DNA of 35,687 nt from a virus. Under the pieces are notes generated by a model. It had not been told where the DNA came from, did not search any database, and was given only the letters and a program-made list of their open reading frames with translations. Positions 2,199 to 30,247 of this stretch are shown one piece after another. The translations under genes were made by a program, and so were the position numbers. The stretch lies in IMG/VR virus record IMGVR_UViG_3300027566_000018, positions 1 through 35,687 of that record; one strand, 5' to 3'. Numbering within the stretch: the stretch's first letter is position 1; every line of letters begins with the position of its first letter.

Positions 2199-2597
2199 GT
2201 GACTCAGATGGACAAAACCTGCACAGGACCTGACACGAGTAACGCTGTTAACAACGCACTCGACAAGGCCGAGATCGTTCGCATCCTCGGGACCATCCTC
2301 GAAGATGTCAACATCGACGAGAACCTCGATGTGTATCACGGCCTGGGTGAACTTATCTCCGCGATCGAGTCCGGCGACTTCGACCTGTCGACTGAGGCCC
2401 TGGTCTCCGCGTTGGTGATGAGGGCAGACGTCGAGGCCGGGCTCGAGGTCGCAGCCGACTGCGAGGGCATTGGGACAGTGTATGCCAACCCCAACGACGG
2501 CATCCGCATCAGGGTCGCGGTCGGGGCGCATCGGTTCCGCCCGTTCTGGAATGCAATCAGATCCGGCGATCTCGTCCCGATGGAGGCGAGCAAGTGA
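2199..2597 (+). CDS. Hypothetical protein with BC1881-like segment
   Basis: 132-aa ORF coupled to the next gene; contains DLSTEALVSALVMRADV...VYANPNDGIRIRV. Confidence 0.7.
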   Translation: MTQMDKTCTGPDTSNAVNNALDKAEIVRILGTILEDVNIDENLDVYHGLGELISAIESGDFDLSTEALVSALVMRADVEAGLEVAADCEGIGTVYANPNDGIRIRVAVGAHRFRPFWNAIRSGDLVPMEASK

Positions 2598-2725
2598 CCG
2601 CCCCGCTCGAAGACGTCCCGATCCCCGTCCTCAAGGCCGAGCTCCAGCGCCGGCAGGTCTCGCCTGTCGACCGGCTCGAGCCCGAGGAGTGCCCGGAGGA
2701 GTGGAAGACAGGAGGAGACGAATGA
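2594..2725 (+). CDS. 43-aa small protein (not in ORF track)
   Basis: GTG overlaps the upstream TGA and its TGA overlaps the downstream ATG. Translation: MTAPLEDVPIPVLKAELQRRQVSPVDRLEPEECPEEWKTGGDE. Confidence 0.7.
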   Translation: MTAPLEDVPIPVLKAELQRRQVSPVDRLEPEECPEEWKTGGDE

Positions 2726-2919
2726 AGCTCGGACTGAAGGGCTATTCCCGCTCCGCGCTCCTCGCCGAGCTCCTGACCCGGCCGGGCGTCCAGTCCCGCG
2801 CGTTCACCGCTGGCGAAAAGATCCGGGTCGAGACCCGCAAGACCGAAGGCGGGCAGACCTACCCTGTCGACATCTGGCACGAAGACGGCCCGGCCGTCCT
2901 GCTGAAGGTGATCCCTTGA
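2722..2919 (+). CDS. BC1881-family-like small protein (65 aa)
   Basis: GGAGG RBS at 2711-2715. Sequence LKGYSRSALLAELLTRPGV...GPAVLLKVIP resembles the BC1881 pattern as I recall it. Confidence 0.6.
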   Translation: MKLGLKGYSRSALLAELLTRPGVQSRAFTAGEKIRVETRKTEGGQTYPVDIWHEDGPAVLLKVIP

Positions 2920-4565
2920 CCGGAACCATCACCATCGCCCCGGTCGGCAACGACGCCCCGGCCGACGTCCGGCTCGACGGCAAGACCGACATGGCCGTGC
3001 TCGCGAAGTACTGGACTGTCGCCGGCGCGAACGTCCACATGCTTTCTGGAAAAGTCAACCTCAACGGCGGCTCATCTGGCGACCCGTCCGGGGGCGGCTA
3101 CCTCCGGCCCGGCAAAGGGGCAACGATCACCGGCGAGCCCGGCACCGTCCTCGAGGCCAGGTCGTCAATCGTCCGCATCACCATCGACAAGCCCGGCGTC
3201 ACCCTGAAGCAACTCGTCTTCGAGGGCCGGGCCCATCTCCAGTGGTTCGATACGGGCGGCGACTTCGTCGGGGAAGACCTCACCGTCGACCAGGACGACC
3301 AGTTCGGAAACTATGACGACTGGAAGGCGTTCGCGGAGTCGCAGCCGTCGTATGCGAAGCCCAACACCTACTATGACCTGAAGCGGAACTGCACGGCCGC
3401 GTTCCTCTTCTATGCGAAGCCCGGCAAGACCCTCAAGAAAGTGACCCTCCGCCGGTGCTGGGCCGTCCGGTCGTATCACCACGGCTTCTCGTGCCATACC
3501 TACGGCGCGCAGGAGGGCGGCACGTTTGCGGACTTCCTCTGGGAAGACTGCGAGGCGATCTCGTGCGGGTCCGGCCTCCTCTCGCCTCGCGACTGGAGCT
3601 GCGGGTTCCTGGTGGATACGGGCAACATCATTCGCATGACGTGGCGCCGGCTCCTCGCCGTGGACACGTACCAGAGCGGGGGCCACACCGACGGATCGTG
3701 GACGGGGCATCGGCAGGACGTCGAAGACTTCGTCATCGAGGACTTTGTCGCGATCGACTGCGGCCGACGATGCAGCCCGGCCGAGGTCGAGCGGTTCTGT
3801 TGCGGGATCTATGTCCAGTCGGCGCAGCTCATCAACTGCCGCACCGAACGCTGCGCCCTCGCCGGCATCGGGATCAAGAATGAGAAGCCAAACTCGCTGG
3901 TAGTGCGCGGCTGCCGCGACACGGGCTCGAAGTACGGGATGATCGCCGAGTATGCCTGCAACGGCGCCAAGATCCAGTTCACGAGCGACGGGGCGAAGGT
4001 CAGAGCCTTCCAGGGCCAGGTGACGGGCTCGGGCACGCTCGACCTGACCGTGATCAATCCCCCGCCTGAGCCGGCCATCCTCTTCGGCCGGACGGCACGC
4101 ATCGACTACTTCGACTGCCCCGGGCACGCGGCACAGGTCCGCGACAAGTACGACGTGCTCAAGTACACCCTGATCGGCGGGAACATCATCATCTCGGGCG
4201 AGGATGTCCCGACGTATGAGGTCTGGGGGGACAGCGTCCTCAAGGGCCTCCCGTCATACGCCCCGCTGGACGACGAGCCCGAGAACCCCCCGGTCGACAT
4301 CCCGAACCCGATCCCATCCGGGAGCCTCTACGTCGAGGACGGCGAGTGGATCTGGTTCCAGCCTCCCGAGGGCCGGCCCGAGCAGTTCCGGATCAACGGC
4401 ACCGCGCAGACGATCCCCCCTGCCTACCTGCAGGCCGGCGGCGTCACCCTCCGTGCGGTCTACGGCCAGGTTAGGGTCTCTGCGACCGGCCTCCCCGAGC
4501 TCGCACTCGGTTTCCTCCCCGACCTGGTGCGACAGTTCTATGGCGATGTGAAGGGGGTGGTCTGA
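2916..4565 (+). CDS. Right-handed parallel beta-helix (pectin-lyase-like) protein
   Basis: 549 aa, TTG start overlapping the upstream stop. Periodic beta-coil motifs (ATITGEPGTVL, VTLKQLVFEG, VTLRRC, FLWEDCEAISCG, FVIEDFVAIDCG, LINCRTERC). No signal peptide. Confidence 0.65.
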   Translation: MTGTITIAPVGNDAPADVRLDGKTDMAVLAKYWTVAGANVHMLSGKVNLNGGSSGDPSGGGYLRPGKGATITGEPGTVLEARSSIVRITIDKPGVTLKQLVFEGRAHLQWFDTGGDFVGEDLTVDQDDQFGNYDDWKAFAESQPSYAKPNTYYDLKRNCTAAFLFYAKPGKTLKKVTLRRCWAVRSYHHGFSCHTYGAQEGGTFADFLWEDCEAISCGSGLLSPRDWSCGFLVDTGNIIRMTWRRLLAVDTYQSGGHTDGSWTGHRQDVEDFVIEDFVAIDCGRRCSPAEVERFCCGIYVQSAQLINCRTERCALAGIGIKNEKPNSLVVRGCRDTGSKYGMIAEYACNGAKIQFTSDGAKVRAFQGQVTGSGTLDLTVINPPPEPAILFGRTARIDYFDCPGHAAQVRDKYDVLKYTLIGGNIIISGEDVPTYEVWGDSVLKGLPSYAPLDDEPENPPVDIPNPIPSGSLYVEDGEWIWFQPPEGRPEQFRINGTAQTIPPAYLQAGGVTLRAVYGQVRVSATGLPELALGFLPDLVRQFYGDVKGVV

Positions 4566-6193: not shown

Positions 6194-6505
6194 CCCTCCT
6201 CCAACGAGGGAGGACCAGAAGATAAGCAGGAACCAAGGCCAGAGCAGCTGCACAACCTGAATCAGCTGTGCGACGTCTGCCAACCTGGATATCCGCGTCC
6301 ACCATCGTCCTTTCGACAATAAATTATGGTCCTTCTGCGTTTCAGAAGGCACATTATTTATGTAATAATTGTTAACGGTTACCTGACCCAGGTAATAGTT
6401 CGTTTCGACCTTTTTGCAGAAGGTCGGGCAATGCGAACTCGGAAAATAATACGAGTTGATTATATTCCGATTATCTATTGGTATGTGGGCCATAAAAACA
6501 CCCAT
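6179..6505 (-). CDS. Possible AT-rich antisense membrane protein (moron-like)
   Basis: 108-aa ORF in an AT-rich island. C-terminal hydrophobic helix (LIQVVQLLWPWFLLIFWSSLV). Minus-strand TTTAAAGA lies about 20 nt before the ATG. Confidence 0.4.
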   Translation of the reverse strand: MGVFMAHIPIDNRNIINSYYFPSSHCPTFCKKVETNYYLGQVTVNNYYINNVPSETQKDHNLLSKGRWWTRISRLADVAQLIQVVQLLWPWFLLIFWSSLVGGGLVGP

Positions 6506-6540
6506 ATATAATTGACTTCGCTTCTTTAAATACTTAATTA
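6505..6540. promoter_or_regulatory. Overlapping divergent archaeal TATA boxes
   Basis: Plus-strand TTTAAATA at 6525-6532 matches the archaeal TTTA(A/T)ATA consensus; the same TTTAAA reads TTTAAAGA on the minus strand. Confidence 0.55.
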
Positions 6541-6594
6541 CCTTTACGATAAGTCAACGATGGCTTTTTCCATACGTCGTATCTTACCCTTGTA

Positions 6595-6837
6595 ATGTCA
6601 GAGTTCGACACTCTTTTGGAGATCGCACTCCTCGCGATCGGCATCGTTGGCGGATACGCCGCGTTCAAGTGGGCCGCGATGGTCAACGTCATCAAGACGT
6701 TCCTCCTTGCGATCCAGGCCATCCGCGCTGCAAAGGCCGACCAGGTCGTCACCGACGCCGAGAAGATCGCCATCGCCGACGCCGCCCTGATCTTCGAGGC
6801 CGCCATCTCGACCTGCATCACCACCGTTCGGCGGTGA
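6595..6837 (+). CDS. Small membrane protein (holin-like)
   Basis: 80 aa with N-terminal TM helix (LLEIALLAIGIVGGYAAF), an amphipathic segment and a basic C-terminus; first gene after the promoter. Confidence 0.6.
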   Translation: MSEFDTLLEIALLAIGIVGGYAAFKWAAMVNVIKTFLLAIQAIRAAKADQVVTDAEKIAIADAALIFEAAISTCITTVRR

Positions 6838-7250: not shown

Positions 7251-7811
7251 ATGCCCGTAGACCCTGCAGACCTCGCCCGGGAGTACGAAGCCGGCGCCGG
7301 CCTCCGCCCGCTCTCGAAGAAATACCACATTCCGTATGCCAAGGTCCGCGAGCTCCTCGTCGAGGCCGGCGCCACCATCCGGTCGCCGAACGGCGGCACG
7401 TCGAAGGAGCAGCAGATCAGCTCGATCGAGCGCGATGCCCGGGTCCGGGCGGTCCTCCGGATGATCGTCGTCGACGGAGCCGCAGACCGACAGGACGTCT
7501 ACGCCCTGGCGACGGATCCCGAGGGCCCGTATCGGTGGGAGGTCGTGATCGAGACCATCGACGGCTACCTCTCCGACGCCCGGGCCCTGCTCCGCGATCG
7601 GACTGCGGCCGAGATCGAGGATCTCCGCGCTCTCCTGGTCGCACGGCTCGAGCTGCTCTGGCAGGAAGCCCCTGACACGAAGACGAAGCTCGAGGTGGTC
7701 CGCGAGCGCGGCAAACTCGGGGGCGCCTACCCGGCGACGAAGATGGAGCACACCGGCACCCTGACCTGGGCGGAGCTGATCCAGAGTGCGAGCGAAGGAT
7801 CCGACGACTGA
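7251..7811 (+). CDS. terS: Terminase small subunit (putative)
   Basis: Immediately upstream of terL. N-terminal HTH (LAREYEAGAGLRPLSKKYHIPYAKVRELL), helical oligomerisation region, C-terminal KMEHTG. Confidence 0.75.
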   Translation: MPVDPADLAREYEAGAGLRPLSKKYHIPYAKVRELLVEAGATIRSPNGGTSKEQQISSIERDARVRAVLRMIVVDGAADRQDVYALATDPEGPYRWEVVIETIDGYLSDARALLRDRTAAEIEDLRALLVARLELLWQEAPDTKTKLEVVRERGKLGGAYPATKMEHTGTLTWAELIQSASEGSDD

Positions 7812-9291
7812 GGAGCGGCGCGCCATCCTTCGGCGCTCGCTCGACGACCCGGCCTGGTGGGTTCGCGAGGTCCTCGGCCACGAGCTCTGGCCGGGCCAGG
7901 TCCGGATCCTCGAGTCCGTGCGGGACAACCGGGAGACGACCGTCAAGTCCTGCCACGGGGCCGGCAAGAGCTTCAACGCTGCGGCGACGGCGCTCTGGTG
8001 GCTCTACTCTCATCCGCATTCGACCGTGATCACGACCGCCCCGACCGATCGCCAGGTCAAGGGCATCCTCTGGAAAGAGATTCGGCTCGGTCACCAGCGG
8101 GCTCGCCGGCCTCTGGGGGGCGAGCTGCTCAAGCAGGAGCTCAAGATAGCGGACGACTGGTGGGCCTGGGGGTTCACCGCGCCCGACTACGACCCCGACC
8201 GGTTCCAGGGCTTTCACAGCATCTACACCCTCGTGATCGTCGACGAGGCGAGCGGGGTCTCGGACGACATCTACGACGCGATCGACGGGGTCCTGACGGC
8301 AGACGAGAGCCGGCTGCTGATGATCGGCAACCCGACCAACCCGAGCGGACGGTTCGCCAAGGCCTTCAAGACGCCCGGGATCGCGAAGGTCAGCATCTCG
8401 GCCTTCGACACGCCCAACTTCACGACCTTCGGCATCACGGAGTCAGACATCATCGCCGGCACCTGGCAGGAGAAGATCACGGGCCCGTTACCCCGCCCCT
8501 ACCTCGTCACCCCGCGATGGGTCGCGGACCGCTACCAGCGATGGGGACCCGGCTCCGCGATGTACGTCGCGAAGGTGAAGGCGCAGTTCCCGGCCGCCGG
8601 GACCGACACCCTCATCCCGCTCCACTGGATCGAGGCGGCCGTCGCCCGGACCCTGCCGCCCTCGGCGCCCTCCGAGCTCGGGGTCGACGTCGCCCGGTAC
8701 GGCTCGGACGAGACCGTGGTCATGCACCGGGCCGGGCCGGTCGTCCGGACAGTCCTGGTCATGCCTATGAGCGATACGATGGAGGTCGCCGGCCGCGTGA
8801 TCCAGCTCCGCCGCGAGCTCGGGGCCAGGGTCGCGAAGGTCGACGCGGTCGGCCTCGGCGCCGGCGTCTTCGACCGGATCGCCGAGCTCGACCGGGAGGC
8901 CAAACGCTACGACGCCGTCGAGGAGATGCAGAGCGGCGCCCGGGCCGAGGACCCCGAACGGTTCGCGAACACCCGCGCCGAGTGGTACTGGGGCCTGCGC
9001 AAGCGCTTCGAGGAGGGAGACATCGACCTCGAGGACGACGAGGTCCTCGTCCAGCAGCTCGCGGACCTGAAATACAAGGTCAACTCGCGCGGGCAGACGA
9101 TCATCGAATCGAAAGAAGACATGAAGCGGCGGGGCCTCTCGAGCCCCGACCGTGCGGATACCCTCATGCTCACCTTCGCGAAGGGCGTCGACCACGACGC
9201 GGTCGCCATCCCCGGCTCCGCGATCCCCTCGGGAAATTCATTCCCATCGTTCATGGGCCGGACCTCCTCCGGCATACCGAGGATCTTCTGA
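7786..9291 (+). CDS. terL: Terminase large subunit
   Basis: Walker A SCHGAGKS, Walker B VIVDEASG, motif III IGNPT, RNase-H-like LGVDVARYGSDET and SPDRADT. Confidence 0.96.
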   Translation: MRAKDPTTEERRAILRRSLDDPAWWVREVLGHELWPGQVRILESVRDNRETTVKSCHGAGKSFNAAATALWWLYSHPHSTVITTAPTDRQVKGILWKEIRLGHQRARRPLGGELLKQELKIADDWWAWGFTAPDYDPDRFQGFHSIYTLVIVDEASGVSDDIYDAIDGVLTADESRLLMIGNPTNPSGRFAKAFKTPGIAKVSISAFDTPNFTTFGITESDIIAGTWQEKITGPLPRPYLVTPRWVADRYQRWGPGSAMYVAKVKAQFPAAGTDTLIPLHWIEAAVARTLPPSAPSELGVDVARYGSDETVVMHRAGPVVRTVLVMPMSDTMEVAGRVIQLRRELGARVAKVDAVGLGAGVFDRIAELDREAKRYDAVEEMQSGARAEDPERFANTRAEWYWGLRKRFEEGDIDLEDDEVLVQQLADLKYKVNSRGQTIIESKEDMKRRGLSSPDRADTLMLTFAKGVDHDAVAIPGSAIPSGNSFPSFMGRTSSGIPRIF

Positions 9292-13871: not shown

Positions 13872-13883
13872 CCCGGCGGAACA

Positions 13884-13895
13884 CTTATTTTATGA
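13884..13895 (+). promoter_or_regulatory. Putative TATA element
   Basis: AT-rich CTTATTTTATGA in the only gap of this block, upstream of the DUF2080-like gene. Confidence 0.4.
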
Positions 13896-13904
13896 GCCCC
13901 CCAT

Positions 13905-14066
13905 ATGGGTAATGTGAGCGATTCATATACGATAGACGGCTTCGAGGTCCTCGAAAAAAAGGTCTCGAAGCACGGCAGCAGCGGGCACCTCTACGTTCCT
14001 GCGTCGTGGATCGGGGCGATTGTCAAGGTGATCCGGACCACCCCGATCAAGGAGTCTGACGAATGA
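13905..14066 (+). CDS. DUF2080-family (AbrB-like) small protein (not in ORF track; start may be GTG 13914)
   Basis: GFEVLEKKVSKHGSSGHLYVPASWIGAIVKVIR matches the archaeal EKxVxxxGNSxHxYxPxxWIGxxVxVIR pattern; ATGA-coupled to the next gene. Confidence 0.8.
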   Translation: MGNVSDSYTIDGFEVLEKKVSKHGSSGHLYVPASWIGAIVKVIRTTPIKESDE

Positions 14067-16289: not shown

Positions 16290-16751
16290 ATGGTCGAACC
16301 CCGCGATTGTAATGCCAGTGCCTCTGAGGTGCCCGCGGAACCGGTCGGCAGTATCAGCTGCCCCCAGTATTGCGACAGTCCGATCCAGATACGGGACCGG
16401 ACCTCGCTCGCGGCCGCCCGGATCCTCTTCGAATGGATGGCCGACGAAATCGAGAGACGCGACCCCGCGCCGCCCCGACAGACCAAAGCCAAAGCGTCCA
16501 AGAAGGCCGTCGAACCGGTCGATTTCACTGCTCCGGATGATCCGAAGAAGAGAAGTCTCGTCCTCGACAAGGCAGTGAGAGCGACCATCAAGGAGTTGGC
16601 GGATGTGAGTGGACGCGCGAGCAGGACCGAGATCGTCGCGGCCCTTACCGATCGCGGATACACAGCAAAGGAGATCCTTGACAAGCTCGATAATCTCGGG
16701 AGGACCGGTGAAATAATGGAACCAAAAGATGGGATCGTCAAGCTGATCTGA
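16290..16751 (+). CDS. Protein with C-terminal winged helix resembling the archaeal MCM C-terminus
   Basis: ASRTEIVAALTDRGYTAKEILDKLDNLGRTGEIMEPKDGIVKLI (GEIxEPxxG). Confidence 0.65.
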   Translation: MVEPRDCNASASEVPAEPVGSISCPQYCDSPIQIRDRTSLAAARILFEWMADEIERRDPAPPRQTKAKASKKAVEPVDFTAPDDPKKRSLVLDKAVRATIKELADVSGRASRTEIVAALTDRGYTAKEILDKLDNLGRTGEIMEPKDGIVKLI

Positions 16752-16764
16752 CTGTAAGTGAGTC

Positions 16765-16826
16765 TATTTTTTAACTATATATTTAACCTTAGATACACTT
16801 ATCTCCTCATACGTCTATTATTATAT
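16765..16826. promoter_or_regulatory. T6 terminator-like tract plus TATA-like elements
   Basis: TTTTTT at 16767-16772, 16 nt after the stop at 16751; TATATATTTA at 16776-16785; TATTATTATATG near 16815-16826. Confidence 0.5.
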
Positions 16827-16868
16827 GTGAAGACTCATAAAGAAACTGAACCTGCGAATGCCCCGTTG

Positions 16869-17094: not shown

Positions 17095-18405
17095 ATGCGG
17101 ATCTTTCTCCTCACCCTCAGCATCCTCCTTCTCGTCGGCGCCGCGACCGCGCCGGCAGCGGCCGCGACCATCACGAGTCCCGGCGTCTACAACCTGACCG
17201 GCGACATCACCGGCTACGATACCCAGCTCCGGATCGCTTCCTCGAACGTCGTCCTCGACGGCATGGGCCATACCATCGCGGGCGCGAACGCCGACGGTTC
17301 GTATGGGGTCGAGATCGGCTCGGGCGCGGAGGCCCGGATCGCGAACGTCGTCGTTCGCAACATGACCGTCCGCGCATGGGACACCGGCATCGGTATCCAG
17401 AACACCGACTCGGTGCTGGTCGAGCGCGTCACGGTCGAGTGGTGCACGAACGGCATCGACGCCTACTACTTCGCCTCGAACGGCACCATCCGCGACTGCG
17501 CCGTCCGCAATAACCTCTGGTACGGGATCGCGCTGGGATACCCGAGCGGGGGCTTTTACATCTCCAAAAACGACGTCTCGGCGAACCGGCGCGGCATCGA
17601 CCTCGACGAGTCGCGCGAGGGGGCGACGAGCTGGATCGTCGACAACACGGTCCACGACAACCGCGATGAGGGGATCTCGGTCTCATCGAGCGCGGCGCTC
17701 GTCCTCGACAACGTCGTCCGGGACAACGCCGGCGACGGGATCGCCATCGCCTACGGCGGTGCGGACGTGAACGGCAACACGATCACGGGGAACGGCGGCT
17801 CCGGGATCGATGCCTCGACGAAGGCCGGCGGGGCGTTCGTCAACAACACGATCGTCAATAACGCGGTCGGCGTCTCCCCGGACAACACGGATTCCGTCGG
17901 CTCGACCAGGCTCTGGAACAACTACCTGAACAACACCGAGAACGGGGCCTTCTACGGCGACGGAGAAGGGTATGGTCAGCAGATCAACACGACGAAGACC
18001 GCCGGCCCGAACATCGTCGGCGGACCGTTAATCGGCGGGAACTACTGGGGGGCGCCCGACGGCCGCGGGTTCTCGGACCTCACCCCCGACGCGAACGGCG
18101 ACGGGTTCTGCGACGCCCCCTACCGGAACCCGGAGGGCGCCGTCGATTCCCTCCCCCTGGCGAATCCGCCGGCCGGCCCCGTGCTCGTCGCCGTCCCGGG
18201 AGGAGTGGGGCTTCCCCGCGACCTGGACGGCAGCGGGCTCTTCCGCGACGTGAACGGCAATGGTCGACATGACTTCGCGGACGTCGTGCTCTACTTCGAC
18301 CGGATGACCTGGATCGCGGAGAGCGAACCCCTGGCCGCGTTCGATTACAACCGGAACGGGCGGATCGACTTCGCGGACGTGGTGTCCCTCTTCGAGGCGA
18401 TGTGA
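17095..18405 (+). CDS. Secreted NosD/CASH beta-helix protein with C-terminal type-I dockerin-like domain
   Basis: Signal peptide MRIFLLTLSILLLVGAATAPAAA; N-ladder beta-helix repeats; NIVGGPLIGGNYW...DANGDGFCD motif; twin Ca-loops DVNGNGRHDFADVV and DYNRNGRIDFADVV. Confidence 0.9.
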   Translation: MRIFLLTLSILLLVGAATAPAAAATITSPGVYNLTGDITGYDTQLRIASSNVVLDGMGHTIAGANADGSYGVEIGSGAEARIANVVVRNMTVRAWDTGIGIQNTDSVLVERVTVEWCTNGIDAYYFASNGTIRDCAVRNNLWYGIALGYPSGGFYISKNDVSANRRGIDLDESREGATSWIVDNTVHDNRDEGISVSSSAALVLDNVVRDNAGDGIAIAYGGADVNGNTITGNGGSGIDASTKAGGAFVNNTIVNNAVGVSPDNTDSVGSTRLWNNYLNNTENGAFYGDGEGYGQQINTTKTAGPNIVGGPLIGGNYWGAPDGRGFSDLTPDANGDGFCDAPYRNPEGAVDSLPLANPPAGPVLVAVPGGVGLPRDLDGSGLFRDVNGNGRHDFADVVLYFDRMTWIAESEPLAAFDYNRNGRIDFADVVSLFEAM

Positions 18406-23761: not shown

Positions 23762-24544
23762 ATGACAATGGATCCCAACGAGAAGTTCAGCGGACAGGAC
23801 GGCGCGATCTACATCGACGACGTCCTGATCGAGGTCGTCCAGGAAGCGAACTACACGGCGACGCGCGAGCCCATCAAGCGCGCCGTGATCGGGAAGTCGG
23901 CCGAGCTGCAGTACGACGGCCCGTACAACCCCGAGTTCTCCATGAAGTACATCCAGTCGGGCTTCGACCTCTTCTTCGCGGTCATGACCGACGCCCCGAC
24001 GGTCGGCGAGGCCCACACCCTCCACGCCGGCATCGGCGACCCGACGACGACCCCCGAGCTCACCCCGATGACGCTGACCAGCTGCGGGGCCGCCTCGCGG
24101 ATCGAGCTCAAGGCCCTGACCGCCCCGGTCACGACGGCCGGCACGATCACCCTCACGGGCACGGACGTCAACGACAAGCCGAAGGCGGAGATCGTCACCA
24201 TCCCGGTAATGGCGACCGGTGGCGCGGTGAAATCGAAGGGCTTCTTCAAGACCGTCGCTTTCGCATCGTCGGCAGACTATGTCCAGGAAGGCGGAACCAT
24301 GTCGATCTCCTCGATCGTCGGCGGCCGGACGGCGAAGCCCTCCCCGAAGTCGAAGCGGATGGTCGTCGTCATGGAGGCCACGAACTCGGCCGGCCTGAAG
24401 GGCATTCTCACAATCGCCAACACCTGGCCGATCACCCACGACTTCAGCATGAAGGGCGGGGCGACGGCGCTCATGGAGCCGACCACGAAGTTCGCGATCG
24501 AGGACCCGGACCGCGACATCTCCTTCGAGGAGACGAACGTCTGA
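23762..24544 (+). CDS. Tail tube protein with inserted beta-sandwich
   Basis: GGAGG RBS; FSGQDGAIYID tube N-terminus; central TITLTGTDVNDKPKAEIVT insertion. Confidence 0.78.
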   Translation: MTMDPNEKFSGQDGAIYIDDVLIEVVQEANYTATREPIKRAVIGKSAELQYDGPYNPEFSMKYIQSGFDLFFAVMTDAPTVGEAHTLHAGIGDPTTTPELTPMTLTSCGAASRIELKALTAPVTTAGTITLTGTDVNDKPKAEIVTIPVMATGGAVKSKGFFKTVAFASSADYVQEGGTMSISSIVGGRTAKPSPKSKRMVVVMEATNSAGLKGILTIANTWPITHDFSMKGGATALMEPTTKFAIEDPDRDISFEETNV

Positions 24545-24553
24545 GGTCGGAGA

Positions 24554-25141
24554 ATGGCGGCGAAAAAGTCAGCACCCGGCGGGACCACTCCCCCCGCCAC
24601 TCCCCCCGATATGGAGTCGATGACCCCGGCGGAGCGGGCAAAGTTCCTCTACAAGGCGTCGCAGCCCGCCCGCGACAAGCGTCGGGCCGATGAGGAGGCC
24701 GCACGCCGGGCCGAAGAGCAGGCCCTCCGGCTCCAGAACGAGCAGGACCTCGCCGAGCTCGCCATGCTCCGCAGGCGCGTGGTCTCCGCGTACGAGGACG
24801 TCCCGCTCTCGAACGGCGATACGATCCGCGTCCGGACCGGTCTCGCACAGGACGAGCTCGAGTATCTCATCACGCTCATCGCCGAGGCCGACCGCATCCG
24901 TGCTCAGGCTCGCACGGAGAAGCGTGCGCTCACCCCCGACGAGGGCGAGGCCATCGATGAGATCGAGCGGCGGAAGGTCGAGGTGATCACCTACAACGAC
25001 CTCATCACGGCCGACTGGCTCCGTGAGCATCCGAACGACGTCCCGATCGTCGACCTCATGACCGCCTACCACCGGGTCATGCCCCTGATCGGTCAGGTGG
25101 CTGCAAAGCCCCAGGTGGCCGCCCGCTTTCGCGACCAGTAG
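24554..25141 (+). CDS. Tail assembly chaperone (G-like)
   Basis: Between tail tube and tape measure; helical; ends CGC TTT CGC GAC CAG TAG. Confidence 0.75.
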   Translation: MAAKKSAPGGTTPPATPPDMESMTPAERAKFLYKASQPARDKRRADEEAARRAEEQALRLQNEQDLAELAMLRRRVVSAYEDVPLSNGDTIRVRTGLAQDELEYLITLIAEADRIRAQARTEKRALTPDEGEAIDEIERRKVEVITYNDLITADWLREHPNDVPIVDLMTAYHRVMPLIGQVAAKPQVAARFRDQ

Positions 25142-25277
25142 GACCGGCAGGCGCTACGGCGCCATGCTGCACCACCTGGGGCTGACCGATATCGAGGCCT
25201 TCTGGCGACTCCCGGAGGCCTCGCAACGCTACTGGTGGGCCTACTTCGAGATGCCCGACTTCGACTGGAGCAGATAA
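25128..25277 (+). CDS. +1-frame extension of the chaperone (GT-like), reached by putative programmed frameshift
   Basis: FATSRTGRRYGAMLHHLGLTDIEAFWRLPEASQRYWWAYFEMPDFDWSR (49 aa); its TAA overlaps the tape-measure ATG. Confidence 0.72.
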   Translation, partial: FATSRTGRRYGAMLHHLGLTDIEAFWRLPEASQRYWWAYFEMPDFDWSR

Positions 25278-28200
25278 TGGTAGGCGTACTCGGCGAGGCG
25301 ATGAACCTCGTCTTCAGCATCGTCGCGAAGGACGAGACCCGGGCGGGACTCGGCACGGCAACCGCCGGGCTGCGGACCGTCAAGGGCGCGGCCGACGAGG
25401 CCGGCAGCGCAGCCGACCTGATGTCGGGCAAGTTCGGACGGGCCGCAACCGCCATCGCCGCCTCCGCCACGGCCGTCGCGGGCGGCATCACGCTCGTCAC
25501 GGCTCGGGCGAAGGAGGTCAATTCTCAACTGGACGCGATCGCCCTCTCCACGGGCAACTCCTCGGAGGAGATGCGGGCGCTCGCGAGATCCCTTCAGGAC
25601 GTCTCGTTCTCCTACGACGAGGTCGTTCAGACATTCCAGACCGCCGAGAGTTACGGCGTGCGAGGAGGGGCGGCGTTCAAGCAGATCGCCTCCGATGCCG
25701 ACACCCTCGCCGACGCGATCCACGCCTCCGCCCCCGAGTCGGCCGCCACGCTCCTGCAGATCGGTGAAGCCTTCGAGCTCAACGCCGGAAAAGCCGGCGA
25801 GCTCAAGGATGCGATCGCCGTCGCGGTCCGCTCCGGACAGACCGACCTCGGCGAGCTCGCACGGCTCACCGGACGGAGCGGTGAGGCGTTCGACGACCTC
25901 AACCTCTCGGCCGTAGACATGGTCGCGACCTGGGTCGCCCTCAAGCGCGAAGGAGCCGGGTCGAGGACCGCCCTCCGGGACATCGCACAGGCGGCCACCT
26001 CGGCCGCCGCCGCGCAGCAGACCTGGACCGACTCGATGGACGAGGCGATCGCCACGCAGGCCGACCTCACCGAGCGGATCGCCGACACCTCGGACCAGCT
26101 CGGCGACATGGGCCGGCAGATCGCGGCGTCCGAGCGCTCGATCGCCGACTACACCGAACAGATCGCCGAGCAGGAGCAGACCGTCGCCGATCTCGCGGCC
26201 GCCTACGAAGCGTCCACGACGAACACGGACGAGTTCGCGGCCGCCTACGCCCAGGTCACGGCTCAGGCAGACAGCCTGACCGCCTCCCTCGCCTCGGAGG
26301 AGCAGCAGCTCGCCTCCCTCGCCGGGCAGCTGGCCGAGGCCCGGCAGGCGCACGCAGACCTCACCGACCAGTACGCCTCGACCGCACAGGAGATCTCGAG
26401 GCTCGAGGCAGAGTACGCGACGGCCGTCACGGCCAACGACTACTTCGCCGAGGCGCTCGAACGGGCGACCTCCGACCTCGAGCGGGCCGAGGCCGCCTAC
26501 TCCTCGAACGCCGATCGAATCGCCGACTACCGCGAGCAGCTCGTCGACCTCGACGCCGCCTATCAGGACCTCGTCGAGGACCAGGCCGACGCTGCCACGG
26601 CCATCGAGAGACTCCGGGTCGAGCAGGCCCGGCAGCTGACGACCGTCACCACGCTCGAGGAGGAGTACCGGCAGCTCGCTGCGTCGACCGAGATCGTGGA
26701 CGAGGCCGAGAAGAAGCACGTCGCCGAGCTCGAGAGTCTGGAGAACCAGTACGACCGCGTCAGCGGGTCGCTCGACGACTACACGGAAAAACTCGAGAAG
26801 AACGCCCGGCAGCGCCAGGAGATCCTTCGGGACCTCGACGACGAGAACGAGACCCTCGCCGAGCTGCAGGCCGAGTACGACATGCTCACCTCTGCGCAGA
26901 ACGCGCAGGGCGGGCAGCTCTACGTCGACCCGGCAACGATGGACGCGCTCCGGGAGAAGATCGAGGCGTCCAAAGAGCGCGTCGACGACCTCACCTATTC
27001 GGCGGGAGAGAACGCCGACCAGCAGAAAGACCTGACGGCCGACCTCGCCGCCGCCCGGGCCGAGCAGGCCCGCCTCGCGCAGGAGCTCGCGAGCACCCGT
27101 GCGAACACCGACTGGTATACCGAGGCCGTCACAAAGCAGGCCGAGGCGCTTGCAGCCCTCGGGGACCGTCTCGGCGATGCCCGGGAGCGGTACGCCGACT
27201 ACAACGACCGGATCGACGACGCCCGGCAGCGGTTCGAGGAGTTCGCCGGCAAACTCGCCGACAACCGCGAGGCGGTCCAGCAGACGAACCGGGACCTCGC
27301 GACCGCGGCCGGGACGTCGAACGACCTCGCCACGGCCGTCGCCCGCGCCCGGCGAGACGTCGCCGAGTTCGGAGACGCCGCCTACACCGCGGCCGCAGGT
27401 CTCTCTCCCTACCAGGAGGCCCTCGCCAAAACACAGGATCGGGCACAGCGGGTGCAGGACGAGCTCGGCAATGCCCGGGACCGACTCGCCGACCTCGGGC
27501 AGCAGATCGCCGATAACGAGGGCTCGCAGGCGAAGCTCGTCTCGGATATGGAGACGGGTCGGCAGAAGATCGCCGACTACCGGACCGAGCTCGAGAAGGT
27601 CCAGTCCGAACTCCAGAAGTTCCGGGACGCGCACAAGGACATCGTCAAGGACGTCTCGCCCTTCGAGGAGGCACAGGCGCGGACGACGCAGAAGATCCAG
27701 GATGCGGCAACGGCGTACAAAGACGGCGTCGACCGTCTCGGGGACCTCAGGCAGGCCCGTGCCGACGAGGTCACGAACCTCTCCGAGTATCGTGAGGACT
27801 ACGAGAAGCTGAATACGAAACTCCGCGACCACCGCGACGCCCTCGACGAGGTCATCGGAAAGATCCGGACCCTCAACGCCAATCCCCCAGGGGCACCGAA
27901 GGATGAGTTCTACCAGTCCCTCGGGCTCACCCCCGAGCAGATCGCAGGCATCAGACAAGAGCTCGAGCAGCCCGGCGCGGCCGAGAGGTTCGCCGGCGAG
28001 GAGAACAAGCGGTACACCACGGCAGACCAGGCGAAATCGTGGTTGGACAAACTGATCGTCGACCTGGGGACGACGCTCGAGCCGCTCGAGCCGCTCGCCT
28101 CCCTCGCGACGATGGGCTTCAGCGCGGCGACATCGTTCGGCCTCCTGAAGCTTCTGACCGGCGGCGGGCTCGGAGCGGCGGCGACCGCGGGCGGGGCGAC

Positions 28201-30247
28201 ACAGACGACCCTCGCCGCGTTCGGGATGGGCGAGACGGCAGCCGCGGCAGCCGGCGGAGCGGGGGCCTCCGTGATCGGGGGCGGCATCGCTGCGACCGGG
28301 ATAGGGAGCTACCTCGGCTCCCAGCTCGGGCCGCTCGGCTCCCTGGCGGCGTTCGGCCCGGTCGCCGGGCCCGCCGTCGGGATATCCGGCACGGTCACGA
28401 AACCATTCTGGGACCTCGTCGAACGGGCACTCACGGGGCAGGACCTGGAGTTCGGGTTCGGCACCACCTTCAAGACGCCGACCGGGGACGTCGACATCAT
28501 CAAGCTCCTGACCGGCGGCATGGTCGAGACCGGCCGGGCCGGCGAGGTGATCCCGTGGACTGCGACGATCGATCCGACGATCACCGGGGGCATGGAGATC
28601 ACCAGGGCCACGAACGCCGAGATCGACGACGGCCTCGCCCGGGTCCCCGGAGAGTCCGAGAAGGCCTACCTGACGAGAGTCGCCGGCACGGCCGACGATC
28701 AGGGCTCGGTCTTCGGCTCGGCGAACTCACTCATCGTCAACGGGATCGCGCGGATTCCGGGCGAGACCGATAAGCAGTACCTGACCAGGATCGCGGCCTC
28801 GGCCGATGACCGGGGCACGGTCTACGGCTCGGCGTCCTCCCTGATCTCGACGCAGTCCACCCGTCTCCCGGGCGAGTCCGAACGGGACTACCTGACGCGG
28901 ATCGCCGGGCAGGCCGACGACGACGGCACGATCTACCGCAGCGCGGACGATCTGCTCACGATGCAGACTCGGAGGATCCCCGGGGAGTCCGACAGAGACT
29001 ACCTGACCAGGATTGCAGCCACGGCCGACGACGACGGGAGCATCTTCGACACGGCCGACACGGTCATCTTCAACGGCCTGGCCCGGATCCCGGGAGAGTC
29101 CGACCGGGACTACCTGACCCGGATCGCCGGCACGGCGAACGACAACGGCACCATCGGGACCTCGGGCAACAGCGCGGTCACAGAGGGGCTCAAGGTCATC
29201 CCGAAGGAGAGCACCCTCGACTTCAGGACCACGATCAACGGCATGGTCACGAACGCGGGCGACTGGTGGTCCGGGATCATGACCTCGCTCTCGAGCGGCT
29301 GGCAGTCCCTCAGCCAGTGGGTGAGCGAGCACAACCCCTTTGTCGCGAGCGCCGGCGGGGTCACGCCCCTCAGCGCGGGGGGTGCAGCCGGAACGACGCC
29401 GGTCGTAAACCCGCAGCAGTATGCAGCCGCGGCCGGCCCGGGGGTGCCTGCCGGCTCGTATATCGACCCCACGACCGGCAGGACGATCGTCCCGGCCGAT
29501 CCCACATACGACCCGACCTTCGCCGCTCAGGTAGCGAGCGGATCGGCCGGGACCGCAACCGGTTACGGGGGGGTCGGCAACACCCCCGCCGACAACTACA
29601 CGCCGGCCGCCCGCCCGACCGGCCCGGCGAACCCCGACGCCGGCGCGAGGCCGGGCGACCCCGGGGTCTCGTACGGCGGGACCGTGGCCGCCGACACGAC
29701 GCCGGCCCCGATGATCCAGGTGATCCTCTCCCCGACCTCGGGAGGCGCCCCGCTCACCGTGACCTGCATGGCCGAGACGATGAATGCGACGGCCGTGCAG
29801 TGGCGGTTCGGCGACGGCGCGATGGGTACCGGCGCGAGGACCTCGCATACGTTCTACAAGGCCGGGTCGTACGAGGTCGTCGGGACCGCGATCGGGCCGA
29901 CCGGGAAGCAGGCCCTCGCGTCCGCGACGGTCACGGTCACGGGCGGGAGCTCGGGCCGGGCCGGAACCGTCCCGCGGTTCCACGACGGCGGGACGTTCGA
30001 GGCCCCGCCGGGAGAGACCGAGGGGATCGCGGTCCTGAAGGCCGGCGAGAAGGTCCAGACCGCCGAGCAGGCATCCCTCGGCAGCACGGGTGAGATCGTC
30101 ACCCTCCTCCGGGAGATCAAGGCCCTCCTGTCCCAGGGACAGGCGGTCGACGTGAACGTGAAGGCCGACTGGGGGACCGTGGTGGACCGGGTCGTCCGCG
30201 CGGGCACGGACGCCAACAACAGGGGCGGCGTCCGGAGGAGCTCATGA
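25277..30247 (+). CDS. Tape measure protein (1656 aa) with C-terminal repeats and PKD domain
   Basis: TAATG start at 25277; NLVFSIVAKDET N-terminus; long heptad region; PKD-like SPTSGGAPLTV...WRFGDG...SHTFYKAGSYEV; RFHDGG...AVLKAGEKV motif. Confidence 0.92.
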   Translation: MVGVLGEAMNLVFSIVAKDETRAGLGTATAGLRTVKGAADEAGSAADLMSGKFGRAATAIAASATAVAGGITLVTARAKEVNSQLDAIALSTGNSSEEMRALARSLQDVSFSYDEVVQTFQTAESYGVRGGAAFKQIASDADTLADAIHASAPESAATLLQIGEAFELNAGKAGELKDAIAVAVRSGQTDLGELARLTGRSGEAFDDLNLSAVDMVATWVALKREGAGSRTALRDIAQAATSAAAAQQTWTDSMDEAIATQADLTERIADTSDQLGDMGRQIAASERSIADYTEQIAEQEQTVADLAAAYEASTTNTDEFAAAYAQVTAQADSLTASLASEEQQLASLAGQLAEARQAHADLTDQYASTAQEISRLEAEYATAVTANDYFAEALERATSDLERAEAAYSSNADRIADYREQLVDLDAAYQDLVEDQADAATAIERLRVEQARQLTTVTTLEEEYRQLAASTEIVDEAEKKHVAELESLENQYDRVSGSLDDYTEKLEKNARQRQEILRDLDDENETLAELQAEYDMLTSAQNAQGGQLYVDPATMDALREKIEASKERVDDLTYSAGENADQQKDLTADLAAARAEQARLAQELASTRANTDWYTEAVTKQAEALAALGDRLGDARERYADYNDRIDDARQRFEEFAGKLADNREAVQQTNRDLATAAGTSNDLATAVARARRDVAEFGDAAYTAAAGLSPYQEALAKTQDRAQRVQDELGNARDRLADLGQQIADNEGSQAKLVSDMETGRQKIADYRTELEKVQSELQKFRDAHKDIVKDVSPFEEAQARTTQKIQDAATAYKDGVDRLGDLRQARADEVTNLSEYREDYEKLNTKLRDHRDALDEVIGKIRTLNANPPGAPKDEFYQSLGLTPEQIAGIRQELEQPGAAERFAGEENKRYTTADQAKSWLDKLIVDLGTTLEPLEPLASLATMGFSAATSFGLLKLLTGGGLGAAATAGGATQTTLAAFGMGETAAAAAGGAGASVIGGGIAATGIGSYLGSQLGPLGSLAAFGPVAGPAVGISGTVTKPFWDLVERALTGQDLEFGFGTTFKTPTGDVDIIKLLTGGMVETGRAGEVIPWTATIDPTITGGMEITRATNAEIDDGLARVPGESEKAYLTRVAGTADDQGSVFGSANSLIVNGIARIPGETDKQYLTRIAASADDRGTVYGSASSLISTQSTRLPGESERDYLTRIAGQADDDGTIYRSADDLLTMQTRRIPGESDRDYLTRIAATADDDGSIFDTADTVIFNGLARIPGESDRDYLTRIAGTANDNGTIGTSGNSAVTEGLKVIPKESTLDFRTTINGMVTNAGDWWSGIMTSLSSGWQSLSQWVSEHNPFVASAGGVTPLSAGGAAGTTPVVNPQQYAAAAGPGVPAGSYIDPTTGRTIVPADPTYDPTFAAQVASGSAGTATGYGGVGNTPADNYTPAARPTGPANPDAGARPGDPGVSYGGTVAADTTPAPMIQVILSPTSGGAPLTVTCMAETMNATAVQWRFGDGAMGTGARTSHTFYKAGSYEVVGTAIGPTGKQALASATVTVTGGSSGRAGTVPRFHDGGTFEAPPGETEGIAVLKAGEKVQTAEQASLGSTGEIVTLLREIKALLSQGQAVDVNVKADWGTVVDRVVRAGTDANNRGGVRRSS
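28640..29194 (+). repeat. Five 111-nt (37-aa) tandem repeats in the tape measure gene
   Basis: R(I/V/L)PGE(S/T)xxxYLTR(I/V)AxxADDxG units start at 28640, 28751, 28862, 28973 and 29084. Confidence 0.9.

Follow-up and report, generated by a model that had tools for sequence, protein, structure and literature searches.

The window analysed here is the whole of a virus record from IMG/VR (IMGVR_UViG_3300027566_000018; 35,687 nucleotides, or 35.7 kb, with a GC content of 66% and an estimated completeness of about 68%), and its subject is a pair of overlapping reading frames just upstream of the tape measure gene that probably encodes a tail assembly chaperone and its frameshifted long form. All the features of this region lie on the plus strand. 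The first of them is a gene at 23762..24544 for a protein of 260 amino acids (aa), the probable major tail (tube) protein, whose role is taken from its position only, directly 5' of the chaperone. It is followed by an open reading frame (ORF) of 195 aa at 24554..25141, which we call G and which ends at the TAG at 25139-25141. A second stretch, called T, occupies 25128..25277 in the +1 frame relative to G, and consists of 49 codons counted from a TTC plus a TAA. The tape measure gene comes next, at 25277..30247, and codes for 1656 aa from ATG 25277, with matches to PF10145 and phrog_167. There are two overlapping ORFs between the tube-like and the tape measure genes, which is the arrangement of the G/GT pairs described by Xu et al. 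2004.

Regarding the geometry of the frames, G is in phase 2 and its 3'-end reads GCC CGC TTT CGC GAC CAG TAG, with the TTT at 25127-25129. The +1 frame (phase 0) is open at 25089-25274, the preceding stop being a TGA at 25086, so the stop positions leave a zone of 53 nucleotides (nt) in the window, 25089..25141, in which a +1 shift would lead to a fusion. From the TTC at 25128 the +1 frame continues for its 49 codons to a TAA (25275-25277) whose last A is also that of the tape measure ATG (25277-25279), in the form TAATG, and a GGAG motif lies 8-11 nt 5' of this ATG. The proposed slip site is the TTT_CGC at 25127..25132: it has both an in-frame UUU-CGN and an open +1 frame starting from UUC, as a UUU_CGN site should. 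The pairing in the P site would change from UUU to UUC, with CGC in the A site. The -1 frame has a stop at 25183, at a distance of 19 codons from the slip site; among 12 relatives, 10 have it closed within 2-19 codons. We found no -1 slippery heptamer (X_XXY_YYZ) in the overlap, and in this point the locus departs from the usual G/GT pair, as its extension uses the +1 frame. A GT fusion of 240 aa is predicted, made of residues 1-192 of G and 48 more, and the junction peptide predicted from the sequence is ...VAARFATSR.

The +1 stretch is coding-like rather than a chance open frame. Its GC at codon positions 1, 2 and 3 is 0.57, 0.50 and 0.91 respectively, like that of the neighbouring genes (the value for the third position, GC3, was taken over 25143-25274), and its codon-usage log-odds score is +14.0, against -43.1 and -37.4 for the other two frames. 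An earlier sequence-only reading of this DNA had described the TTT CGC GAC CAG TAG end, the 49-codon +1 frame, the TAA overlapping the tape measure ATG, the normal GC3-biased codons of the extension and the early closure of the -1 frame, and all of it was correct, the score being positive in the +1 frame only.

An exhaustive HMMER profile search gave a family of G proteins with 64 cluster representatives. The comparisons at the DNA level were made on 13 homologous loci from different samples, spanning a GC content of 44-70%: the window, 11 family members with available DNA and one locus reached through its terminase (we name single loci L002, L003 and so on where they have to be told apart). 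The order tube-like gene, G, T and tape measure gene was found in all the long loci (L008, L010, L012, L014, L015, L016 and L022), and every longer locus has an ORF of 243-262 aa at the position of the tube-like gene; the 260-aa protein of the window itself had no match in a Pfam/PHROG scan. Word-based and pattern searches gave a single relative, L002 (IMGVR_UViG_3300040733_000068), and one word-based protein search returned the query itself only. Pattern scans of metagenome and genome contigs with alignments of G either produced no match or the alignment was too diverse for them, and searches of phage records gave no match for the DNA of the region, for the tube-like and capsid proteins or for G, two low-GC homologues of G being among the queries.

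All the 13 loci have an in-frame TTT in the chaperone, and the next codon is CGC in 10 of them, CGT in one and CTC in two; in all of them there is also an extension of 45-64 codons in the +1 frame that ends at, or overlaps, the tape measure start. The sequence-only reading had proposed the conservation of the motif in homologous chaperones as a check, and TTT_C is actually invariant in 13 of 13 loci (11 with CGN and 2 with CTC), which is conservation beyond what coding needs. In an alignment of 12 loci anchored on the TTT, TTTC is the sole run of consecutive positions with zero entropy across about 190 nt, and its flanks have 0.8-1.9 bits at nearly all positions; the 13th locus also has TTTC. 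The TTT codon, the less favoured one for Phe, represents 11 of the 131 Phe codons in the confident genes of the window, and 7-13% of them in the GC-rich loci, counting the six with more than three Phe codons. Multiplying the local frequencies of TTT over 12 loci gives 10^-8.4. Furthermore, synonymous sites are saturated between the loci, the proportion of synonymous differences (pS) being 0.6-1.0, and therefore the conservation of TTT_C does not come from shared recent ancestry.

The proteins of the 64-member family show the same pattern. Phe is present at the slip column in 62 of the 64, and the next residue is Arg in 56, Leu in 5 and His in 1. The zero-frame tail after this Phe is freely variable, from 1 to 31 residues, which is expected if the tail merely shadows the +1 frame. 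L012 and L015 allow the shift in a zone of only 23 nt, which contains the motif, and L007 allows it in one of 35 nt; therefore, the shift would be confined to approximately -11..+5 relative to the TTT. One homologue of G, P0008 (218 aa), aligns with the family over its first ~145 residues, and the remainder is rich in Arg, Pro and Gly and lacks the Phe-Arg end. This tail seems to be read out of frame, either because of an indel in the assembly or through a genuine disruption.

The T region is under purifying selection, and this selection is specific to the +1 frame. Starting at the Phe, the T peptides of the window and 11 relatives can be aligned over about 44 residues with no gap; T position 7 is Gly in all of them and T position 14 is Leu in nearly all. 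The ratio of nonsynonymous to synonymous proportions (pN/pS) was 0.25-0.69 in the +1 frame in nine pairs, versus 0.94-3.7 in the other two frames.

We consider, with a probability of around 85%, that the 195-aa ORF and the 49-codon +1 stretch would form a G/GT-type tail assembly chaperone pair expressed by means of a programmed +1 shift, as judged from their sequences. Most ribosomes would read G to its TAG. In a minority of them, the peptidyl-tRNA-Phe on the UUU (25127-25129) would be in the P site with CGC in the empty A site and would slip by +1, its GAA anticodon re-pairing with UUC, and Ala (GCG) would be decoded next. Reading would then continue to the TAA at the tape measure start and yield the GT protein. 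By analogy with lambda, G, which both proteins share, may coat the tape measure protein, and the tail tube protein may be recruited by T. The shift would be ribosomal, would take place exactly at UUU_C and would be of low efficiency; for a chaperone of which little long form is required, as in lambda (PMC5009743), a weak, structure-free site could be suitable. The signal itself seems to be the bare TTT_C(G/T)N.

Several observations weigh against this interpretation. RNAalifold found no conserved RNA structure in 12 loci between -12 and +98, and the homologous loci showed no Shine-Dalgarno-like stimulator at a fixed distance, the codon before the TTT being variable. CGC is a common codon that represents 29-31% of the Arg codons in the window, and the stimulus of a "hungry" A-site codon is not evident; in the relatives CGC makes up 7-46% of the Arg codons. 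The sequence-only reading had also regarded the site as informative about the archaeal decoding of CGC, which is unsupported because the codon is not rare here. CTC takes the place of CGN in two loci, so the motif is TTT_C plus something, and not a strict UUU_CGN. Pfam and PHROG scans gave no match for G (nor for T), and when G was aligned exhaustively by structure with 48,161 PDB representatives, the HK97 tail assembly chaperone 2ob9 came first in a tie with unrelated helical proteins. Finally, the sequence alone cannot tell a +1 from a -2 shift, since both lead to the same frame.

This last point bears on an improbable alternative, namely that the change of frame is real and takes another route: the ribosome could shift by -2, or by +1 at another codon, or there could be transcriptional slippage. 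The -2 shift is unlikely because the two bases before the TTT vary between the loci (gc, cc, aa, ac and ga), so the re-pairing of tRNA-Phe would fail, and polymerase slippage would need a run longer than three T. As another codon we considered CCC_C at 25109-25112, which is a known +1-prone site inside the 53-nt overlap zone of the window. However, it was rejected as the slip site, being unconserved (L005 has CCT_G) and lying outside the zone allowed in L007, L012 and L015.

It is very unlikely, moreover, that T is a separate small gene with its own translation, either from ATG 25164 (37 aa) or by termination and reinitiation after the stop of G. The window, L002, L008, L013, L014 and L022 do have an ATG at +37 counted from the TTT, L007 has a TTG, and the gene caller annotated small ORFs there in L008 and L013. 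Nevertheless, L005, which is the closest T relative of the window (65% identity), has Leu at the position of Met 25164. Start-like codons (ATG, GTG or TTG) are absent for 36-43 codons past the slip site in L005, L010 and L011, where the first start codon in the T frame appears at +124, +130 and +109 from the TTT, respectively. The conservation of the amino acids also begins 5' of Met 25164, with the gap-free alignment from the Phe and the invariant Gly. There is no Shine-Dalgarno motif before ATG 25164 in the window, whereas a GGAGG-type motif precedes 15 of the 20 other listed start sites, and the start of G has a Shine-Dalgarno-like motif. Since Met 25164 is neither conserved nor preceded by a Shine-Dalgarno motif, the independent start that the sequence-only reading had named among the things that would refute its proposal does not seem to be at work. 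T is thus a downstream ORF without a start of its own, to be reached only by a change of frame in the overlap, as in the G/GT pairs.

That there is no recoding at all and only G is made, the +1 ORF being an assembly error or a decaying remnant, is hardly credible: although the window consists of one metagenomic contig and a GC of 66% readily produces open frames, 13 independent assemblies have the same frame arrangement (which also speaks against the indel that the earlier reading had named as a refutation), purifying selection and a GC3 of 0.91 mark the +1 frame only, and TTT_C is invariant despite the saturated synonymous sites.

Regarding the identity of G, its assignment as a chaperone rests mainly on the gene order and the frameshift architecture. 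The AlphaFold model of G has a mean predicted local distance difference test (pLDDT) of 91.7 and is mostly helical with a short hairpin. Foldseek found no match for it in the PDB at E <= 0.001; against BFVD the matches were weak (E 2e-3 to 0.3), many of them being named tail assembly chaperone, and one of these weak matches is a protein of Methanobacterium virus Drs3. The comparison of G with 2ob9 gave a Z of 5.5 and a root mean square deviation of 5.5 A, with 97 of 104 residues aligned, which is a modest similarity. The predicted structure is suggestive of a tail-assembly-chaperone fold.

The host of this virus is likely a methanogen of the Methanomicrobiales, to judge from its relatives. The terminase (7786-9288) has homologues of 61-72% identity that are named from metagenome-assembled genomes (MAGs) at NCBI, and five of the nine named matches listed come from a Methanomicrobiales archaeon, from Methanoregula sp. 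(three) and from Methanoculleus horonobensis; the remaining ones are named "bacterium" or Latescibacteria. The chaperone is arranged in the same way, with AAA TTT CGC AAA AAG TAG, on a contig whose terminase is named from a Methanoregula MAG. Thus, the earlier label of methanogen virus is backed by these terminase relatives. The virus is probably siphovirus-like, as no sheath gene was seen and the 260-aa tube-like gene is present.

Two of the relatives show particularities of their own. L022, which is associated with Methanoregula, has a radical SAM/SPASM protein at 2592-3347, between head genes. L015 (GCA_023142475.1, JAGLJL010000109.1) is a 38.8-kb contig with the tube-like, G, T and tape measure module and TTT_CGC, and it comes from a MAG labelled Gammaproteobacteria. 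Either its binning is wrong or the chaperone family extends beyond archaeal viruses; the assignment of viral contigs to bins is unreliable either way.

Among the other genes of the window there are a D5-type primase-helicase, a Mu-like portal and an HK97-fold capsid protein. The tape measure protein has a PKD domain near its C-terminus, at residues ~1487-1554 (window 29700-29950; PF18911, PF00801). When the window is compared with L002 and L003, the tube-like protein is 92% identical and the adjoining chaperone only 42-44%, and the break falls at the gene boundary. This suggests a mosaic exchange of the chaperone module, perhaps together with the tape measure, or else a very fast evolution of G. 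At 17095-18405 the window encodes a NosD/right-handed beta-helix protein with a weak dockerin match at its C-terminus, whose sole relative found among genome contigs is 32% identical and belongs to an Aenigmatarchaeota MAG. The ORF at 4822-5340 matches DUF1937/DUF4406 and also, weakly, domains that are nucleoside 2-deoxyribosyltransferase-like, and it may act in nucleotide modification or salvage. There are also short AT-rich intergenic islands with TATA-like boxes at 6330-6600, 13880-13930 and 16745-16830, which would fit archaeal promoters. Neither the window nor the relatives yielded any tRNA gene.

The T part has consequences for annotation. In 9 of the 11 fetched loci with gene calls, the gene callers left it unannotated, as a "gap" of 100-150 nt before the tape measure gene. 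Annotation pipelines that seek -1 heptamers only will miss T. As for archaea in general, one -1 frameshift has been shown experimentally and no +1 frameshift had been demonstrated according to a 2021 review (PMC8211752). The value of the locus lies in the breadth of its conservation and in being a compact test case for archaeal +1 frameshifting: because the site is conserved over a wide range of GC and the zone for the shift is very narrow, it makes a clean substrate for testing.

One known system of this kind is the gpG/gpGT pair of lambda, together with the chaperone frameshift conserved among long-tailed phages (Levin 1993; Xu, Hendrix, Duda 2004), both summarised in a passage of PMC5009743. 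Like lambda, the window has overlapping ORFs before the tape measure gene, the second of them without its own start, and the long form would be expected at a low ratio, as it is there. However, lambda and most phages use a -1 shift on an X_XXY_YYZ heptamer, whereas in the window the -1 frame is closed, there is no heptamer and the movement would be forward on a single P-site codon. The chaperone shift of Mu is reportedly one of -2, in the work of Xu and colleagues. Among the viruses of archaea, -1 sites have been described for haloarchaeal siphoviruses (PMC5009743, PMC8211752), and for HSTV-2 passages of the same two papers call a +1 shift "very likely". The paper on Blf4, a virus of Methanoculleus, makes no mention of chaperones or frameshifts.

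The UUU_CGN type of +1 site is represented by PA-X of influenza A (UCC_UUU_CGU) and by the plant amalgaviruses, according to passages of PMC7230728 and PMC5052127. The likeness to the window is that the P-site UUU changes to UUC with CGN in the A site, and that no conserved downstream structure is needed. Nevertheless, the window belongs to another domain of life and its A-site codon is not rare. Moreover, its family has CUC instead of CGN in 2 of the 13 loci, and the preceding codon is unconserved.

The closest parallel is found in the HF1 group of haloarchaeal myoviruses (HF1, HF2, Serpecor1 and Hardycor2; Hafunaviridae), for which a +1 shift at TTT-CGC was predicted (Dyall-Smith et al. 2020, PMC7230728). 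According to these authors, the TTT-CGC sits inside a 15-bp stretch of perfect conservation close to the first ORF's stop and the fusion needs a +1 shift, and they liken the site to those of the amalgaviruses and PA-X. Among the literature searched, this is the only paper that ties TTT-CGC to a prokaryotic virus. Therefore, it was an overstatement to take the +1 shift at TTT-CGC as unprecedented, since the same motif and mechanism had been proposed for these viruses in 2020; our locus is another case of an already proposed, and so far predicted, recoding at TTT-CGC. We checked HF2 and found GAG AAG TTT CGC AGA TAG with a 107-codon extension in the +1 frame. As in the window, the in-frame TTT CGC precedes the stop of the first ORF by a few codons (three in HF2), the direction is +1 and the evidence is at the level of prediction; furthermore, both first ORFs end in a basic residue followed by Phe-Arg.

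The two families are nevertheless different. We found no homology between G and HrrHF2_550, the chaperone of HF2, when the 64-member profile was compared by hhalign (probability 0.2%), and a tblastn of G against phage records had no match. Our locus brings in another virus family beside the HF1 group, unrelated to it and much larger, that has this minimal TTT_C site as well. It is conceivable, although we hold it somewhat short of an even chance, that UUU_C(G/U)N is a general, structure-independent +1 signal for tail-chaperone genes, taken up independently in chaperone families of archaeal viruses that are unrelated to each other, namely those of the siphovirus-like viruses of Methanomicrobiales and of the Hafunaviridae myoviruses, with a site identical to that of influenza PA-X and the amalgaviruses. 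If so, this would hint at a behaviour of tRNA-Phe on UUU common to the ribosomes of all three domains, and archaea would have their first experimentally tractable +1 frameshift. Compared with the HF1 group, the host of the window virus is probably one of the Methanomicrobiales and not of the Halobacteria, the T part has 49 codons versus 107 in HF2, and the motif has been kept over 13 deeply diverged loci with a GC content of 44-70%, the CTC variant included.

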